A stretch of 33,652 nucleotides of DNA from a virus, in the IMG/VR virus record IMGVR_UViG_3300000052_000002, positions 1 to 33,652 of that record; one strand, written 5' to 3'. A model generated the notes under the pieces. It saw nothing but the letters and a program-made list of their open reading frames with translations, was not told the origin of the DNA and did no database searches. This document shows, in pieces, positions 19,834 through 33,652 of this stretch. The translations under genes were made by a program, and so were the position numbers. The first letter of the stretch is position 1; each line of letters opens with the position of its first letter.

Positions 19834-20473
19834 CTTATTTTGTCCCTTGAATATTTCCACCCAAGGGACTAACAAGCAGAGGAGCCGCCCTGGACTCCTC
19901 TACAAAACTTTTTTAAATTCTTAATTTTATTTACCGCTGTTGTTCTAATAAACATATTTCCAAATATTACGTCTTTTATTAACAATATCTTTTATGTGTG
20001 CTTCTGAAACATTGTACTTTTCAGCCAATATTTTTCTGCCATAATATCTACCTGATTCACTTGCAACTTTTCTAATTGCAATGATATCATTTTCATTCAA
20101 TTTAGAATTTCCGTTCTTTGATCCATGTGCTGAAATTCTTAATCCGTTTTTATACGCATGTAATTGGTTCATTGAATTGTTGCACCATTCTAAATTTGAA
20201 ATATCATTATTGAATTTATTTCCATCAATATGATTTACCTGGGTGTAATTATTCGGATTATCAATAAAATGAATTGCAATTAATCTATGTAGATTAAATC
20301 TTTTCATTTTTGAATTCTTACATAAAACAACTTCATAGTATTCATCTTTGATCAATGATATTTTTCCGCCCTTTGTTCCTTTCCTGGCAATAGAATTGAT
20401 ATTACCTTCAATATCTATTTCATATAATCCCTCATAACCAATGATTTGTTTTTTCATATTACAAAGGTAAGTT
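19834..20473 (-). mobile_element. 640-nt HNH-encoding intervening sequence, a putative self-splicing (group I-like) intron, inside the terL Walker A codons
   Basis: The last exon-1 base is U (20474) and the last intron base is G (19834). Joining them restores the frame and gives GGTKISGKT. The 3' part has hairpins at 19878..19901 (AGAGGAG/CTCCTCT) and 19842..19869 (GTCCCTTG/CAAGGGAC). I could not trace the P1 or P7 pairings. Confidence 0.6.
19945..20457 (-). CDS. HNH homing endonuclease, I-HmuI-like (NUMOD4 + HNH_3 + C-terminal HTH), 170 aa
   Basis: Motifs are GYEGLYEIDIEGNINS, HRLIAIHFIDNP..VNHIDGNKFNNDISNLEW and NSMN. It is in a different frame from both terL exons. Confidence 0.8.
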   Translation of the reverse strand: MKKQIIGYEGLYEIDIEGNINSIARKGTKGGKISLIKDEYYEVVLCKNSKMKRFNLHRLIAIHFIDNPNNYTQVNHIDGNKFNNDISNLEWCNNSMNQLHAYKNGLRISAHGSKNGNSKLNENDIIAIRKVASESGRYYGRKILAEKYNVSEAHIKDIVNKRRNIWKYVY

Positions 20474-20534
20474 ATATTTTTGTACCACCTTCATAATAAA
20501 TACAAACATTAATCAGGAAATAAAGGTTGTTCAA
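20474..20534 (-). CDS. terL: Terminase large subunit, exon 1 (20 codons plus 1 nt; TTG start inferred)
   Basis: The frame is open only from 20537 (TGA at 20540..20538) and has no ATG. It encodes (M)NNLYFLINVCIYYEGGTKI plus the first base of a split Ser codon. It overlaps the terS 3' end by 26 nt. Confidence 0.5.
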
Positions 20535-20964
20535 TCTTCAAATCCGTTTGGGTTTTCTCAACCAAATTGTTTAACCTCTGTGTAATGGATGGATTATAAA
20601 CCCCGGCCATGCCCCCGGCTATCTGATCTTCCCGGATGATTCGCTTTATACGTGAACAGACATCCGAATACAATTCGTATGCCCCCCCGGTGTTGCCAAA
20701 ATAATCATCTGTATCTTTTATGATGCCTTTTGAAAAAACATAATTGGAAAATCCTTCATAGGTTAAAGGTTTTTCCTTTGGCCTTTCAACTTGCATTGCC
20801 ATTCCACCTACCCAATCTCTTACATAAAACGGATTTGATTTAACTTTTGCTTGATATTCTTCAAACAATGTCCACATCATTTCCGGGGATTCAATGTATT
20901 TCTTTTTAACCAATGGTTGTTTATTTGCTTTCGGTGCTGCTTTTTTCTTTACTTGCTTTGCCAT
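20509..20964 (-). CDS. terS: Terminase small subunit (gp3-package-like), 151 aa
   Basis: It has a basic N-terminus, PLTYEGFSNYV (HTH-like) and ...IREDQIAGGMAGVYNPSITQRLNNL. It sits immediately upstream of terL. Confidence 0.65.
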   Translation of the reverse strand: MAKQVKKKAAPKANKQPLVKKKYIESPEMMWTLFEEYQAKVKSNPFYVRDWVGGMAMQVERPKEKPLTYEGFSNYVFSKGIIKDTDDYFGNTGGAYELYSDVCSRIKRIIREDQIAGGMAGVYNPSITQRLNNLVEKTQTDLKIEQPLFPD

Positions 20965-21160
20965 TTATCTTGCTTTGGTTATCAAATACGAATTTCACCA
21001 TGTAGTTCACGCATGATTGACATCCTCTGTATGAAAAATCTCCATTGGGTGAAATTGATGTTGCCCATTGGTGCAATTGTTCCAATTCTGCTTCTGATGG
21101 ATGTGCATCAATCCCCAGGTTAACCCTTTCAAATAAATAATTAAAATCTTCAATTTTCAT
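20921..21160 (-). CDS. Hypothetical protein (79 aa, contains CQSC)
   Basis: ORF between the sigma factor gene and terS, overlapping both. Confidence 0.4.
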   Translation of the reverse strand: MKIEDFNYLFERVNLGIDAHPSEAELEQLHQWATSISPNGDFSYRGCQSCVNYMVKFVFDNQSKINGKASKEKSSTESK

Positions 21161-21632
21161 TTTCTATGTGTTTAATGATTTGTTTCCTGGCTTTCTGAAT
21201 TGTTTTGCAAATGCCTGAATATTCAATGCCTGTTTCTGCTTCTATTTTCCTGTATGATTTGTGTTCTGCATAAAGTTCTAACATCTTTGCATCATACCAA
21301 TTCAATTTGTGCAAAGGTATGATTATTTTTTCCGGTTGGATTTCTTCGGCAATATCAATGAATTCAAAAACAGATAATTCCTTTTGTAGTGTTTTTTTGT
21401 ATGATGATCTTTGCCATTTGATTTGATTGTACATCATGTTTATTACATATTGTTTCAATTTGTTCCTGGTGTAAAGATCAATAATGAATTCATCCGGTTT
21501 TTCAAGTAATTCCAAAAATGTAACCTGGATGATATCTTGTTGAATTTCAACCGGTTTAATGTATTTTTTAACGCAATCATTTAATTCCTTTGATCGGTAA
21601 AGTTCATCAATGATTTCATTTTTGGAATTCAT
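21150..21632 (-). CDS. Phage-encoded sigma-70-family (ECF-like) sigma factor, 160 aa
   Basis: There is a region-2-like segment (DIIQVTFLELLEKPDEF...YVINMMYNQIKWQR). The region-4 HTH is LNWYDAKMLELYAEHKSYRKIEAETGIEYSGICKTIQKARKQI. Confidence 0.6.
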   Translation of the reverse strand: MNSKNEIIDELYRSKELNDCVKKYIKPVEIQQDIIQVTFLELLEKPDEFIIDLYTRNKLKQYVINMMYNQIKWQRSSYKKTLQKELSVFEFIDIAEEIQPEKIIIPLHKLNWYDAKMLELYAEHKSYRKIEAETGIEYSGICKTIQKARKQIIKHIENEN

Positions 21633-21661
21633 GATATAAAGTTACAATGTTTTTTTAATTT

Positions 21662-21885
21662 GTGTAAATACACATGTTGTGTAAAACGTGTACGCCTGAA
21701 ACTCAATGTGGTTGGGCATTTACACGATTTACACGTTTACACACAAATTTTCATTTTCTATATTTATATGTATCTCTTTATAATAATAATATATTATTAT
21801 AATCTCTATACGTACACGTGTAAACGTGTAAACGCTGTGCTGTATTGGGTTTCATCGTACACGTTAACGTGTAAACATGTGTAAA
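21662..21885. promoter_or_regulatory. Iteron cluster flanking an AT-rich core: candidate replication origin (alternatively an operator or packaging recognition region)
   Basis: GTGTAAA occurs at 21662, 21679, 21818, 21826, 21869 and 21879. The inverted form TTTACAC occurs at 21719, 21728 and 21736. A ~66-bp spacer (21745..21810), nearly all A/T, contains the 18-bp palindrome ATAATAATATATTATTAT (21783..21800). CGTACACG/CGTGTACG palindromic units lie near 21687, 21811 and 21857. Confidence 0.55.
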
Positions 21886-21898
21886 TGACATAAAAAAA

Positions 21899-21913
21899 CC
21901 CGGATAAACCGGG
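21899..21913 (-). terminator. Terminator after the primase-helicase gene
   Basis: The minus strand reads CCCGG-TTTAT-CCGGG followed by TTTTTTT. Confidence 0.6.
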
Positions 21914-21959
21914 AATTAAAGTAAAATGTGTAAGAAAACTTAATTGGTGCTTCAATGAA

Positions 21960-24173
21960 TTAAATCCGTTTTTGATAAACTCCCTGGGAAATTTTAACAA
22001 ATAATGCTGCAAAATCCTTTGTTCTCATGGATGAATCAAATTTTCTTTCGGATAAATTGATTTTTTTACAGATTTCCGCCGCCTCTTTTCGGTTGAATTG
22101 ATCAGGTAACGCATTGTAAAGATTTTCCAATTTTTCAGGTAATCCGGTTTCATTGGTTGTATGTAATCGGGAAATGATCTTTAATGTTGTTTCGGAATAG
22201 TATTTGTAAAGTTTTTGTGATAAGATCACAATTTGTTCTGTGATGATTGGATTGGATGGATTGTTAAGGATTGCAACGATCTGTGTTAATCGGCCCATGT
22301 AATTACTCATTTTGGCATGTGTTCCCAAAATGTAACCTTCAACCCTGTTTTCAATTCTTTCATTTGCAGCCACTAAATCGGCTTTATAAATTTTCCGATA
22401 TGTTCCCCTGGCTTCATTGGTAAGATTGATTCTTACCGGCTCAATTTCAGTTTCATTGTATCTTTTGGCGTTATTATAAACCTGTGATAAAATATCTGTC
22501 CAATCCTGGCAAATTTCCCTGGATCTGCTGAATGGATCGGCTTCAATGTTTAGTAATTTGTAATCTGATTCGCACATCAAAAACCTGGATGCAAATCCTG
22601 ATGTGATCCTATCCATTGGAAAAATGTTTTGGATCCTTTCCGTTTGGGTTCCCATCAATAGATTGATGTTTAAGTTTTTAACTATCCTTTCATTTTCTCT
22701 GTTGGCCCTGGATTGCACAAATCTTCCCCCACCAAATGCCTGGGTTAAAAATGATATGGTGTTGTTGTTTGATTTGTATGCACCGGCATTCAAAATATCT
22801 TCGGCCTCATCAATATAAATTCCAATGCCGGTTTTTTGATCCATGCATAATGAAATGTAACCTTCAATGGTTCCATCCTTTACAATTGGGATGAATCGTT
22901 TGGGCCTGGATTCAAAAAATGGTTTCTTATCAATCTGTGCTTTTGCTTTGCGGCCTTCCCATAATTTAAGATCGGTTGCGTATGTTCTATCTGATTGTTC
23001 CAATATCCGTTTCATTGGGTTCTGTGCCATTACTTCCTGGGCCGGTGATTTACCAACCGACATTGGGGCAATTAGGAAACAATAAAGAATGTTCTTTGCT
23101 GATCCAATTTCGGATTCATAGGATGCACCGGCCAATGAACTAACGGCCCAAATTCCGGCTGTGGCCAGGAATTCCGGCGACATGGATCGTTCCTTTGCCA
23201 CCTCAAAAATTGATTCCTTAACCGCCTGTGGAAAAATATCAAATGGAAATGCCAGGCCGGATTGCTTTTTTATTCCGATGTGATCAAAAACATTTTCCCA
23301 TGATCTTTTCAGGTGATAGAATAAAATAAACGATGGTGATAAACTCCAAACAGGATATTCATGTTTATTGTGCCAATTCGGGAAATTGTGCAACGATGCC
23401 GAAAATAATAAAACCCTTCGTGATCTATAATAAACTTTTGCGGAAATGGCATTGGATGTTGATCCTTTGCGTTTGTATGCATGGAATTTGTCTTTGGTTG
23501 AATACCGGAAATCCCGGATTAATTCAATTCCGATTCCATTTAAAATAATATCAAAATCATCATCTGAAATGTTTTTATCATAATCAATCAATTCATTTTC
23601 ATAACCTTTTGGATAATTGATGGCTTTTTTTGTTGGATCATATGCCGGTTTGTACTCATTAAAATATTGGGAAATTGATAAAAGATAATTGAAATCATCA
23701 TCATTCAATTCATCAACATCCAACATTGATTGATAATATTCTGTGTAACCTGGTGTTGGGTATGTGTATACCAATGGCCCATTACAATAAAGGGCAATTA
23801 CTTCTGATCCATCATCCGCATCCGCCAATGCCATTTTTTTGGGTAGATGATTGTATTTTATCCAAACATGAAATCCCTGGTTCCTGGTTTCTTCAATGAA
23901 TACTTTGTTTAAAACATCCGGATTATCATTTGTGATAATGTCCATCCATTGTTTGAATAGGTTTTTGTTTTTAGTATTTTTCAAATCAAAATCAATGGCC
24001 CCGAAATTGTTTTCGGTTTTAATCATTAATCCATTGTGTTTGGAATACAAATCAAAATCCGTTTCTGTTGCCCAATTCCTATGGCTAACCGGTTGTTTTT
24101 TTTTAACATCCCATTCAATAGGGATGATAGTTAACCCCAATGATTTGTAATCATTGTAAATTTCTTTAATCAT
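21960..24173 (-). CDS. Bifunctional primase-polymerase (prim-pol) fused to a DUF3987-type helicase (737 aa from MIKEIYNDY)
   Basis: The N-terminus has GLTIIPIEW..KKQPV, GAIDFDL and GFHVWIKY (prim-pol). The C-terminus has Walker A APMSVGKS and Walker B IYIDEAED. The ATG at 24173 is preferred over the track start at 24233. Confidence 0.7.
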   Translation of the reverse strand: MIKEIYNDYKSLGLTIIPIEWDVKKKQPVSHRNWATETDFDLYSKHNGLMIKTENNFGAIDFDLKNTKNKNLFKQWMDIITNDNPDVLNKVFIEETRNQGFHVWIKYNHLPKKMALADADDGSEVIALYCNGPLVYTYPTPGYTEYYQSMLDVDELNDDDFNYLLSISQYFNEYKPAYDPTKKAINYPKGYENELIDYDKNISDDDFDIILNGIGIELIRDFRYSTKDKFHAYKRKGSTSNAISAKVYYRSRRVLLFSASLHNFPNWHNKHEYPVWSLSPSFILFYHLKRSWENVFDHIGIKKQSGLAFPFDIFPQAVKESIFEVAKERSMSPEFLATAGIWAVSSLAGASYESEIGSAKNILYCFLIAPMSVGKSPAQEVMAQNPMKRILEQSDRTYATDLKLWEGRKAKAQIDKKPFFESRPKRFIPIVKDGTIEGYISLCMDQKTGIGIYIDEAEDILNAGAYKSNNNTISFLTQAFGGGRFVQSRANRENERIVKNLNINLLMGTQTERIQNIFPMDRITSGFASRFLMCESDYKLLNIEADPFSRSREICQDWTDILSQVYNNAKRYNETEIEPVRINLTNEARGTYRKIYKADLVAANERIENRVEGYILGTHAKMSNYMGRLTQIVAILNNPSNPIITEQIVILSQKLYKYYSETTLKIISRLHTTNETGLPEKLENLYNALPDQFNRKEAAEICKKINLSERKFDSSMRTKDFAALFVKISQGVYQKRI

Positions 24174-24292
24174 GGCAATTAAATAAATGTGGCCGGAAAT
24201 GGAATGATCCAAGGTAGCATCTCGGATCCCCAAAACCGGCCAATAAGTTATTACAATTATGCTACAATTGTATTTAATACGAAATTAGGAAT

Positions 24293-24511
24293 TTATTTTG
24301 TCAATTGCTTATCTTCCGGAATAAATCCGGTGCCCTGTGTTCTATCGGTTGCCTTAAGGAAATCCACTTCAATTTTAACTGAATTAACAATCACCTGGGC
24401 AACATCTGCAATGGCTTTTGCCCTGTTTATTTCCATTGGATTTTCAGGATCCATCAATGATTCCATTGTTGCAAATAAATGATTCCGTAAATCTTCAATC
24501 TTGTTTTTCAT
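24293..24511 (-). CDS. Hypothetical protein (72 aa)
   Basis: ORF only. Confidence 0.35.
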   Translation of the reverse strand: MKNKIEDLRNHLFATMESLMDPENPMEINRAKAIADVAQVIVNSVKIEVDFLKATDRTQGTGFIPEDKQLTK

Positions 24512-25118
24512 TAATTACTTTTTTAATTTTGTTTAAAATTCTGATCGTCTGCCTCACTTCCTTTGGAAATCTCATGATGGTATTTTTTGCCATGTTTTCC
24601 CCAATGGTGATGGCTTCAAGATTTTCAATGTCCACGTTTAATTTGTTCCCATCCTTAAACCTTATTTTCATATCATCCGGAATTGTGCCATGATGTTGTT
24701 CATAAATAACCCGGTGTTTCAATTTGTAAACATTTTTACTAATCCTGATTTGAATGTAACCATCTTTTGTGATTCGTTCTGCCCCATCACGTTGAAGATT
24801 ATGCGGCTCATGTCCTTTTTGATACATGGTTGGTGCAAATCGTTTGTAAAGTTCATCCGGCATTGGTTTTCCCTTGTTTGCCGGTGTATTTCCTTTTTTA
24901 TACCTGAATGATGCCCCATCTGTTCTTAATCTGTCGGCTTGTATTGCCAATTCCATTTTTAAAAATTCAGGTGATTTTTTCAATCTGAATAAATATGCTT
25001 TGCCGGCAACGGATGTATAAGATTTATTTAATGCGGCACAAATATCTTTTGTGTATGTGTTGGCAAAATTTAATTTTAAATATTCAATCTCCTGATCTGT
25101 CCATTTTTTACCATTCAT
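24495..25118 (-). CDS. Free-standing HNH endonuclease (HNH_3-type), 207 aa
   Basis: KDGYIQIRI...YKLKHRVIYEQHHGTIPDDMKIRFKDGNKLNVDIENLEAITIGEN. Confidence 0.7.
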   Translation of the reverse strand: MNGKKWTDQEIEYLKLNFANTYTKDICAALNKSYTSVAGKAYLFRLKKSPEFLKMELAIQADRLRTDGASFRYKKGNTPANKGKPMPDELYKRFAPTMYQKGHEPHNLQRDGAERITKDGYIQIRISKNVYKLKHRVIYEQHHGTIPDDMKIRFKDGNKLNVDIENLEAITIGENMAKNTIMRFPKEVRQTIRILNKIKKVINEKQD

Positions 25119-29836: not shown

Positions 29837-29992
29837 TTAAATTACTGGTAATATCAATTCTCTAACCGCTTTGGAAAGGGATCCCCATTTTTTAATGATG
29901 GCTTCCTTTTGATCTTTTGTCAAATAAAGTGAAACTAATTTCACTTTTTGATCATCCGGAATTGGTTTCCGGCCTGGCTTTTGTCTGCCCAT
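29837..29992 (-). CDS. Ribbon-helix-helix (Arc/CopG-like) regulator, 51 aa from MGRQKPGRKP
   Basis: It has a basic N-terminus, then the beta-strand VKLVSLYLTKDQKEAI and the helix SLSKAVRELI. The -7 box at 30016..30023 lies inside the longer track ORF, which favours the ATG at 29992. Confidence 0.45.
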   Translation of the reverse strand: MGRQKPGRKPIPDDQKVKLVSLYLTKDQKEAIIKKWGSLSKAVRELILPVI

Positions 29993-30015
29993 TTTTTTTG
30001 TTATTTGGTGAATTG

Positions 30016-30023
30016 CAAATATA
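30016..30023 (-). promoter_or_regulatory. Bacteroidota-type -7 promoter element TATATTTG (TAnnTTTG) for the leftward early operon
   Basis: The minus strand reads ccTATATTTGcaattcaccaaataacaaaaaaaATG. Confidence 0.5.
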
Positions 30024-30091
30024 GGATAAAACATTATAATAAAAAAAATAAAAAATATTTTATAATTTAATAAACATATTGTTATTTACAT

Positions 30092-30099
30092 TATCTTTG
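30092..30099 (+). promoter_or_regulatory. Bacteroidota-type -7 promoter element TATCTTTG for the rightward islet
   Basis: The plus strand reads catTATCTTTGtgaaacaattaaaccaaaacaacATG. Confidence 0.5.
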
Positions 30100-30122
30100 T
30101 GAAACAATTAAACCAAAACAAC

Positions 30123-30335
30123 ATGAGCATTAAAATAGTTAAGTCAAAAACGAAAAATGAAAAAGTAGTTATTAATAGAAGAAAAAATCCTGATAATGGA
30201 TATGATTATTATTTTACATTTTTATATAATTCCGGGCAAAATCAGGAATTTGAATTTATTAAAGAAATTAAACATCCGGAAATATCATCATTAATTTCTG
30301 CAATTGATTATGCAAACAAATTATTAAACAATTAA
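30123..30335 (+). CDS. Hypothetical protein (70 aa from MSIKIVKSK)
   Basis: The ATG at 30123 lies downstream of the -7 box, and a terminator follows directly. Confidence 0.45.
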   Translation: MSIKIVKSKTKNEKVVINRRKNPDNGYDYYFTFLYNSGQNQEFEFIKEIKHPEISSLISAIDYANKLLNN

Positions 30336-33592: not shown

Positions 33593-33652
33593 TTAAATGT
33601 TTGATTCAAGGTACATCCGATTCAATGCCAAAACTTTTGGTGTTGTCCCGGT
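33593..33652 (-). CDS. 3' end (last 19 codons plus TAA) of the junction-spanning gene 955->1
   Basis: Same frame as 1..955 through the 49-bp overlap. It ends ...RMYLESNI*. Confidence 0.8.
   Translation of the reverse strand, partial: TGTTPKVLALNRMYLESNI
33604..33652. repeat. Second copy of the 49-bp terminal overlap
   Basis: Identical to 1..49. Confidence 0.95.

Follow-up and report, generated by a model that had tools for sequence, protein, structure and literature searches.

The DNA considered here, a stretch of 33,652 nucleotides that makes up the IMG/VR virus record IMGVR_UViG_3300000052_000002 and is called the window below, carries a gap between the gene of a primase-helicase and the gene that follows it, in which the short word GTGTAAA is repeated in both orientations around an A/T-rich centre. 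The locus raises the question of what such an array is for. A preliminary description had proposed a replication origin, composed of iterons and an A/T-rich unwinding element beside the replicative primase-helicase, and had named two alternatives, namely operators of a sigma factor gene and a recognition site for the terminase. The comparisons reported here favor the origin: the repeat cluster is very probably where replication starts, and it would be read by the C-terminal domain of the primase-helicase. Two lines of evidence carry this reading, the conservation of the layout among relatives in which the repeat word itself varies, and the covariation of the word with one predicted helix of that domain.

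The array stands out by number alone. GTGTAAA occurs 14 times in the window, and nine of these copies lie within positions 21662-21885, in two orientations, as had been claimed. In 100 dinucleotide-preserving shuffles the count averaged 5.6 and was always below 14. By chance ~0.04 copies would fall in 224 bp, and the Poisson probability of nine or more is ~4e-19, or ~5e-17 when corrected for window scanning. Of the 55 occurrences of the core GTGTA/TACAC in the window, 14 fall in the gap; the longer ACGTGTA occurs seven times, every time in the gap, and the circular genome contains only one cluster of GTGTAA. The circularity follows from the ends of the window, in which nucleotides 1-49 are identical to nucleotides 33604-33652; the window is therefore a complete circular (or circularly permuted) assembly of ~33.6 kb. 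The extent of the non-coding gap, 327 bp, agrees with the earlier account (Table 1).

The genes near the array are all encoded on the minus strand, and along this strand the order of elements is the stop codon of the primase-helicase, a terminator-like hairpin, an arm of 2 + 2 iterons, the A/T core, an arm of 3 + 2 iterons, a -7-like promoter box and the ATG of an open reading frame (ORF) of 160 amino acids. The two arms mirror each other. The inner iterons make up a perfect inverted repeat of 15 nt (21728-42 / 21818-32) with the core between its halves, both arms contain a spacer with the element TGAAAC(C/T)CAAT (~11 nt), inverted between the arms, and over its full 236 nt the array forms an imperfect dyad (fold of the single-stranded DNA, -44.8 kcal/mol, z = -7.5). 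Degenerate cores of the form GTGTAcg, which are inverted relative to the adjacent full copy, create the palindromes TACACGTGTA and TACACGTTAACGTGTA, the latter of 16 bp (21858-21873) and tied for the second-longest palindrome of the genome. The units CGTACACG, previously described as palindromic, are no palindromes but degenerate iteron cores in inverted orientation. A mechanical ORF overlaps the array on the plus strand, yet the variation of the array among relatives, with shifting words and a constant layout, is not what a coding sequence would be expected to display. An Rfam scan of 21400-22200 returned only far-sub-threshold matches to miRNAs and sRNAs, owing to the dyad symmetry of the array.

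The centre of the dyad was thought to be a spacer of ~66 bp, nearly all A/T. Its richness in A/T holds, and its length does not, as the stretch between the inner iterons measures 75 nt at 84% A+T, and its purest part (21745-21803) 59 nt at 92%. The 18-bp perfect palindrome reported in this spacer is present and is the longest of the genome. Among all 40- and 60-nt windows of the genome, the core is the second least stable duplex (-35.2 kcal/mol versus a mean of -50.0 +/- 4.0), which makes it a candidate unwinding element. In the relatives a core of 42-68 nt and 84-95% A+T occupies the same position.

Table 1. Coordinates of the array, the adjacent genes and comparable arrays (positions refer to the window unless a related locus is named).
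Feature	Position	Strand	Remarks
Intergenic gap holding the array	21633-21959		327 bp; between the primase-helicase stop and the ATG of the 160-aa ORF
Full GTGTAAA copies	21662, 21679, 21818, 21826, 21869, 21879	+	start positions
Full GTGTAAA copies	21719, 21728, 21736	-	start positions
Arm beside the primase-helicase	21818..21885	+	four full GTGTAAA (21879-85, 21869-75, 21826-32, 21818-24)
Degenerate cores cGTACAC	21856-62, 21811-17		two, inverted; primase-helicase side
Spacer element ATTGGGTTTCA	21844-54		primase-helicase-side arm
A/T core	21743..21817	.	candidate unwinding element, between inner iterons
Palindrome ATAATAATATATTATTAT	21783-21800		18 bp, perfect; inside the A/T core
Arm beside the downstream gene	21662..21742	-	three close-set iterons in opposite orientation (21736-42, 21728-34, 21719-25)
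Spacer element TGAAACTCAAT	21697-21707		downstream-side arm; inverted relative to the spacer of the other arm
Degenerate core; partial core	21688-94; 21669-73		downstream-side arm
Outer full copies	21679-85, 21662-68	+	downstream-side arm; this orientation in the window's lineage
Mechanical ORF over the array	21660..21884	+	TTG start, 74 aa
Terminator-like hairpin CCCGGtttatCCGGG with T-run	21889..21913 (hairpin 21913..21899)	-	intrinsic type; putative end of the primase-helicase transcript ahead of the array
-7-like promoter box TAACTTTA	21637..21644	-	one mismatch to TAnnTTTG; 4 nt before the ATG of the next gene
Primase-helicase gene	21960..24173	-	737 aa from ATG at 24173; mechanical ORF of 757 aa from TTG at 24233
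C-terminal winged-helix-like domain	21963..22136	-	residues 700-757 (757-aa numbering); proposed iteron reader
Putative recognition helix 3	22026-22043	-	residues 731-736 of the primase-helicase
160-aa ECF-sigma-like gene	21150..21632	-	directly downstream; neighbor of the origin, not part of it
terS	20509..20964		~0.7 kb downstream of the array
IHF-matching arrays, examples	L024 8600-8880; L028 8340-8625; L065 2130-2440

Relatives of the primase-helicase were gathered from 63 viral loci in IMG/VR (96-51% identity) and from eight further loci in GTDB genomes (genome or metagenome-assembled genome, MAG), in which the identity falls to 29%. Almost without exception, loci that extend far enough downstream have their strongest cluster of short repeats directly after the primase-helicase gene, and ~55 relatives, spanning 96% to 29% identity in this protein, share the order of stop codon, terminator, iteron arm, A/T core and inverted iteron arm. 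A GC hairpin with a T-run, matching that of the window, is visible in several of them (e.g. L001, L017, L024 and L050), and the orientation pattern of the iterons, left '<' and right '>', is present in all lineages. Conservation in relatives had been suggested as a check of the origin, and the layout is indeed kept while the word varies. At least 15 words are found by lineage, including GTGTAAA, GTGTAT, GGTGCA, TGCAAAT, TGCGAAT, TGAGAAT, TGAACTT and GTAAAA, as well as TGCTAAA, GCGCAA, TGTACA, AGTTAC, TGCAATT, TGAAAC, TTGACA and CTGTAA; in L004, L005 and L008 a degenerate array is built on GGTGT. At close range the word is preserved: the alignment of the gap with that of the 96% identical relative L001 contains 27 differing columns, none of them among the 63 iteron positions (P about 0.002).

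The GTDB loci belong to MAGs of Chitinophagaceae (Ferruginibacter, Sediminibacterium and Flavihumibacter), Haliscomenobacter and Sphingobacteriales, and to the chromosome of Pedobacter cryotolerans, and thus point to a host among the Bacteroidota. The Pedobacter locus (L070; NZ_SWBO01000004.1, 107211-115409) encodes a 29% identical primase-helicase, with a CTGTAA array directly after its stop codon, in a bacterial chromosome, so that the module also occurs in an integrated element or prophage. The phage group has hundreds of metagenomic relatives, none of them isolated. GenBank phages yielded no DNA match to the window, and by protein just two distant unannotated fecal contigs (24% identity) and no annotated relative. 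An extra ORF of 217-359 amino acids, which may be a mobile gene, stands right after the primase-helicase stop in ten loci (L010-L013, L015, L059, L016, L021, L022 and L040); despite this insertion the array is still found downstream of the primase-helicase in L012, L013, L015, L059, L016, L021, L022 and L040.

What follows the array bears on the first alternative, in which the repeats serve mainly transcriptional control and proteins bound to them, whether the winged helix or another regulator, time the downstream sigma-like and late genes. The array does lie between a terminator and a -7-like box, with the last iteron ~17 nt upstream of the latter. The -7 promoter consensus of the Bacteroidota is TAnnTTTG, and it is found after the array in many relatives (L001, the TGCAAAT, TGCGAAT and TGAGAAT lineages, and the TGAACTT locus L047); TAACTTTA is the probable start of the downstream, late operon. 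The GTGTAAA, GTGTAT and GGTGCA lineages, as well as L066, have the sigma-like gene after the array, but it was not detected downstream (tblastn, E <= 1e-4) in the TGCAAAT, TGCGAAT, TGAGAAT and TGAACTT lineages, all of which keep their arrays. The downstream gene varies among lineages and the upstream primase-helicase is constant. Moreover, the nine to fifteen sites, set in mirrored arms around a meltable core, go far beyond the need of an operator. The best sigma-70-type promoter matches do use the iteron TTTACA as their -35 element, yet such matches are no more frequent in the region than expected (8 found versus 8.0) and are ill-suited to a Bacteroidota host. The operators of the preliminary description therefore fare worse than the origin, and control of transcription as the main role of the array appears quite improbable.

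The label of sigma factor given to the 160-aa ORF is tentative: the ORF weakly matches the sigma70-ECF (extracytoplasmic function) model TIGR02937 over nearly its whole length (residues 15-155, E = 4.9e-6), at a score below the curated threshold (26.3 bits versus a cut-off of 42.9). It has no Pfam or PHROG match and no useful match in the Protein Data Bank (PDB). Its start codon is ATG in the window and GTG in the GTGTAT lineage, as compared with L001, L003 and L004, and the position of the -7-like box, 4 nt from that codon, hints at a leaderless or nearly leaderless transcript. The two best sigma-70-type matches stand face to face (21736-21764 on the plus strand, 10/12; 21824-21796 on the minus strand, 11/12), with the TTTACA of the inner iterons as -35 and hexamers of the A/T core as -10. 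They were rejected as functional promoters and are probably incidental, since relatives whose word differs do not have them and promoters of the host phylum follow a different consensus.

The constant partner of the array is thus the primase-helicase, and a comparison of two groups with nearly identical words shows where the two evolve together. The word is TGCGAAT in six loci and TGAGAAT in 12, and the primase-helicases of the two groups are up to 97.8% identical. The two are told apart by a single one of the 285 variable columns, namely residue 734 in the predicted helix 3 (757-aa numbering). This residue is Asp in all TGCGAAT loci and Asn in all TGAGAAT loci, although the latter take in L052, whose protein is just 68% identical to the rest. 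In other lineages the residue is Asp with TGCAAAT (12 loci) and with TGCAATT (L065), and Asn with TGAACTT (three loci). Hence in 34/34 loci position 3 of the iteron is C where the residue is Asp and A where it is Asn, a pairing that matches the usual contacts of Asp with cytosine and of Asn with adenine. The same end of the protein diverges in close pairs with different words: 12/22 differences between L016 and L051 (96.5% identical) fall in the last 58 residues (Fisher p = 3e-8), as do 15/48 between L026 and L052 (93.5% identical; p = 7e-7). Residues 726-742 have their own sequence for each word, invariant or nearly so within it. Across the 27 ORF families common to TGCGAAT and TGAGAAT loci, no credible separating column was found except in the primase-helicase; apparent ones in two families (fam13 and fam15) were discarded, as they fall in a gappy hypervariable stretch and in a probably spurious low-complexity ORF. 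Judged by covariation, the specificity for the putative origin would reside in the C-terminal domain of the primase-helicase.

This test also bears on the second alternative, that of a pac- or cosB-like site recognized by the small terminase, the gene of which lies a short distance downstream. The array is situated where the replication module meets the packaging module, and in some relatives a terS-like gene comes directly after it. In several lineages the arm spacers match the consensus of IHF, as in cosB of phage lambda, in which I1 is an IHF site. The terminase, however, does not follow the word. The terS products of L006 and L007, with GTGTAT arrays, are 92-95% identical to that of the window, with its GTGTAAA array, and that of L002, which also has GTGTAT, is 49% identical; nor does any column separate TGCGAAT from TGAGAAT loci in the downstream families of 236 (putatively terS-like), 180 and 89 amino acids. 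In L011, L015 and L059 terS lies ~2.6 kb from the array, which is still beside the primase-helicase, and the circular assembly, with its 49-nt overlap, has no end at the array. A packaging site, also raised at the outset, is thus a poorer explanation than an origin, and it is hardly credible. terS is mosaic among the relatives, as L002, L006 and L007 share the GTGTAT word and ~62-64% identity in the primase-helicase and differ in terS identity.

The IHF matches themselves are denser in the arrays than elsewhere. A perfect match to the E. coli consensus WATCAANNNNTTR is present in the spacers of both arms in TGCGAAT and TGAGAAT loci, and in one or both arms in TGCAAAT and TGAACTT loci, and the density of such matches is 3.6 per kb within arrays versus 0.17 per kb outside (examples in Table 1). 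At the homologous spacer position the window has its TGAAAC(C/T)CAAT element.

The protein that would read the iterons has a composition suited to an initiator. Its label of primase-helicase is well founded: it comprises an N-terminal, archaeo-eukaryotic primase (AEP)-type primase-polymerase (prim-pol) domain, a DUF3987 P-loop helicase and a C-terminal winged-helix-like domain. Pfam recognizes DUF3987 only (E = 5e-29), and PHROG assigns helicase and primase families. The relatives are 733-738 amino acids long, and D61, D63 and H102 of the AEP motifs, G374/K375 of Walker A and D455/E456 of Walker B are invariant in 40 sequences. Neither the single protein nor a profile of 40 sequences matched any PDB sequence. 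The fold was examined in a full-length AlphaFold2 (AF2) model (predicted local distance difference test, pLDDT, 83.8). In Foldseek its N-terminal domain resembles the prim-pol of plasmid pRN1 (1rni; E = 6.6e-5, prob 1.0, template modelling score on the target 0.56), and the central domain resembles AAA+ chains of the MCM type (E about 1e-3); a SaPI (staphylococcal pathogenicity island) Rep structure is absent from the top 50 fold matches of the full-length model. Residues 640-757 (pLDDT 85.7) end in a unit of helix, strand, two helices and two strands, i.e., H-S-H-H-S-S, which is the topology of a winged helix, with residue 734 in the third helix. The top Foldseek matches of this C-terminal model are winged-helix domains (CAP, MCM8, MarR, E2F and RuvB), none of them significant; that of MCM8 has prob 0.95 and a root-mean-square deviation of 3.4 Å over 63 columns.

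Since covariation demonstrates the joint evolution of winged helix and word, and not the effect of binding, a further alternative has to be considered, in which the array is a platform bound by the primase-helicase or another protein for some other end: a partition or centromere-like site, a decoy in incompatibility or superinfection exclusion, or a recombination hot spot. The many specificity classes are indeed reminiscent of incompatibility groups. Nevertheless, no partition ATPase or similar partner is encoded by the handful of neighboring genes scanned, the constant partner of the array is a primase-helicase and its constant centre an easily melted A/T tract, and in SaPIs this layout has been proven to be an origin. 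Such a platform is considered very improbable.

Several points weigh against the origin and its proposed reader. The A/T tract at 30033-30092 is marginally less stable than the core of the array, the two being nearly tied; no dense short-repeat array comparable to that at 21662-21885 was found there. The GC skew, which had been proposed as a check, was calculated and proved uninformative: the cumulative skew falls almost monotonically and has no inflection at the array, and it follows gene orientation, as the genes share one strand. The winged helix is predicted by the AF2 model, with fold matches that stay below significance (best E = 0.15). The lineages are not independent samples, and the Asp/Asn rule derives from some six independent backgrounds. 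The relation of helix to word is, in addition, no simple code, and the register of the words between distant lineages is uncertain. In L066 (4705-5010), 11 copies of GGTGTAA, with the same GTGTAA core as in the window, accompany a 49% identical primase-helicase with a different helix 3, PLRKFEICMKKESF, so that helix and word are not related one-to-one; a single recognition code across all lineages was consequently given up, given this exception and the ambiguous register between distant words. Finally, binding of the primase-helicase to the repeats would not by itself prove that they function as an origin.

With these points taken into account, the best joint reading remains, in all likelihood, a dyad-symmetric origin served by a single-chain, self-loading initiator that unites AEP prim-pol, DUF3987 helicase and winged helix. 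In the mechanism proposed by analogy, helix 3 of the winged helix would read the 7-bp GTGTAAA iterons of both arms, and two helicase rings would assemble on them, one on either flank of the 59-75-nt core, because the iterons are set in two mirror-image arms. The A/T core would then melt between the rings, and the fused prim-pol would prime synthesis at the melted core, while the ~11-nt element of the arm spacers may bind, or bend with, a second factor. As the putative origin has the replication operon's terminator on one side and the next operon's promoter on the other, the bound initiator may also affect that promoter, as an effect secondary to its role at the origin.

The closest known precedent is that of the SaPIs, the primary work on which is that of Ubeda (2007 and 2012). 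The Reps of these islands are self-loading helicases in which a C-terminal winged helix recognizes iterons of 5-6 nt, and their origins consist of 6-12 iterons immediately downstream of rep, half on each side of an A/T-rich centre and in opposite orientation (PMC9371898); in SaPI5 primase and helicase are fused in a Pri-Rep (PMC9371898; Qiao 2022). Here, likewise, the proposed initiator is itself a helicase, with a fused primase as in SaPI5, and in both systems the iteron words differ from element to element. Nine full and about five degenerate iterons lie within 300 bp of the stop codon and oppose each other around an A/T centre, and specificity would reside in a C-terminal winged helix, in this case a predicted domain with covariation evidence. 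The two systems differ in the helicase, which is DUF3987 here and of the DUF927/Cch-type, MCM-like, in SaPIs; DUF927, that of the staphylococcal helicases, and DUF3987 are treated as separate families (PMC5862659). They differ also in the host, in that a complete phage of Bacteroidota and not a satellite is concerned, and in the extra conserved spacer element of each arm. In addition, the only DUF3987 helicase tested moves 5'->3', whereas SaPI Reps move 3'->5'. The former is a protein of a Flavobacteriaceae element, an active 5'->3' helicase with a 'C-terminal small domain' that binds a prim-pol partner; iterons are unmentioned in that report (PMC11724360).

The domain order is that of ORF904 of the plasmid pRN1, which consists of prim-pol, superfamily 3 (SF3) helicase and winged helix; immediately beyond the terminator of the ORF904 gene lies its origin, a large inverted repeat (PMC4234260). 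Both proteins carry an AEP prim-pol, a helicase and a C-terminal winged helix, predicted in the present case, in this order, 1rni being the best structural match of the N-terminal domain, and in both cases an inverted repeat, origin or putative origin, lies just downstream of the gene and past a terminator. The pRN1 helicase, however, belongs to superfamily 3 and the present one to DUF3987, with its matches to the MCM-type AAA+ fold; the origin described for pRN1 is a stem-loop that lacks iterons, whereas the arms are built of iterons here; and pRN1 is an archaeal plasmid. The alpha protein of the satellite phage P4 also unites primase and helicase with an origin-binding winged helix at its C-terminus, by which short repeats of the origin are read (PMC4234260). 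The arrangement in one polypeptide is thus shared, but the P4 primase is of the Toprim/DnaG type and not an AEP, and P4 needs a second cis site, crr, where a single repeat cluster is present here. In the large T antigen of polyomaviruses and in E1 of papillomaviruses, dyad repeats beside an A/T tract direct two helicase hexamers through the helicase's own origin-binding domain. These viruses are eukaryotic, however, the folds of their origin-binding domains are unrelated, and no primase is fused. The origin of the window may thus work like that of a SaPI or of pRN1, with an initiator that belongs to neither protein family.

A few other features of the genome are of note. The tract at 30033-30092 lies in the only divergent intergenic region (29837-30335), beside a 65-aa ORF with a faint match to ribbon-helix-helix (RHH, CopG-like) proteins. 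A 16-nt repeat, TTAAACCAAAACAACA, occurs three times upstream of plus-strand ORFs, and the region is probably an early or switch promoter region. Two HNH_3 endonuclease genes, which may be homing endonucleases, are found at 19945-20457, between terS and terL, and at 24495-25118, just upstream of the primase-helicase gene; the former has a 73% match in L009 only.

The general scheme, in which an initiator-helicase carries a winged helix and iterons on both sides of an A/T core come right after its gene, has precedents in SaPIs, pRN1 and P4, and a specialist would judge it tidy, not surprising. The layout, familiar from the staphylococcal islands, had not previously been described for the DUF3987 helicase family, for which limited full-text literature searches found no described origin. 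The present work offers a well-supported candidate origin and initiator for this family and for a large uncultured group of Bacteroidota phages, together with a putative natural switch of specificity by a single residue and a single base (Asp/Asn versus C/A), which is directly testable. Together with ~300 bp, the primase-helicase gene could be put to use as a minimal replicon when genetic tools are built for Chitinophagaceae or Sphingobacteriia. More tentatively, and with considerable doubt, the findings may be joined into a family-wide, retargetable lock between initiator and origin, shared by those Bacteroidota phages and elements that have a DUF3987 prim-pol/helicase. Its specificity would be switched by single substitutions in helix 3, Asp for C and Asn for A, the replicon classes, at least 15 in number, would behave as incompatibility or exclusion groups when relatives co-infect, and the IHF-matching spacer would recruit a host bending protein and thereby wrap each arm around a helicase ring. 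If this were true, the family would provide a natural series for the recognition code of winged helices and the first defined origin for DUF3987 helicases.

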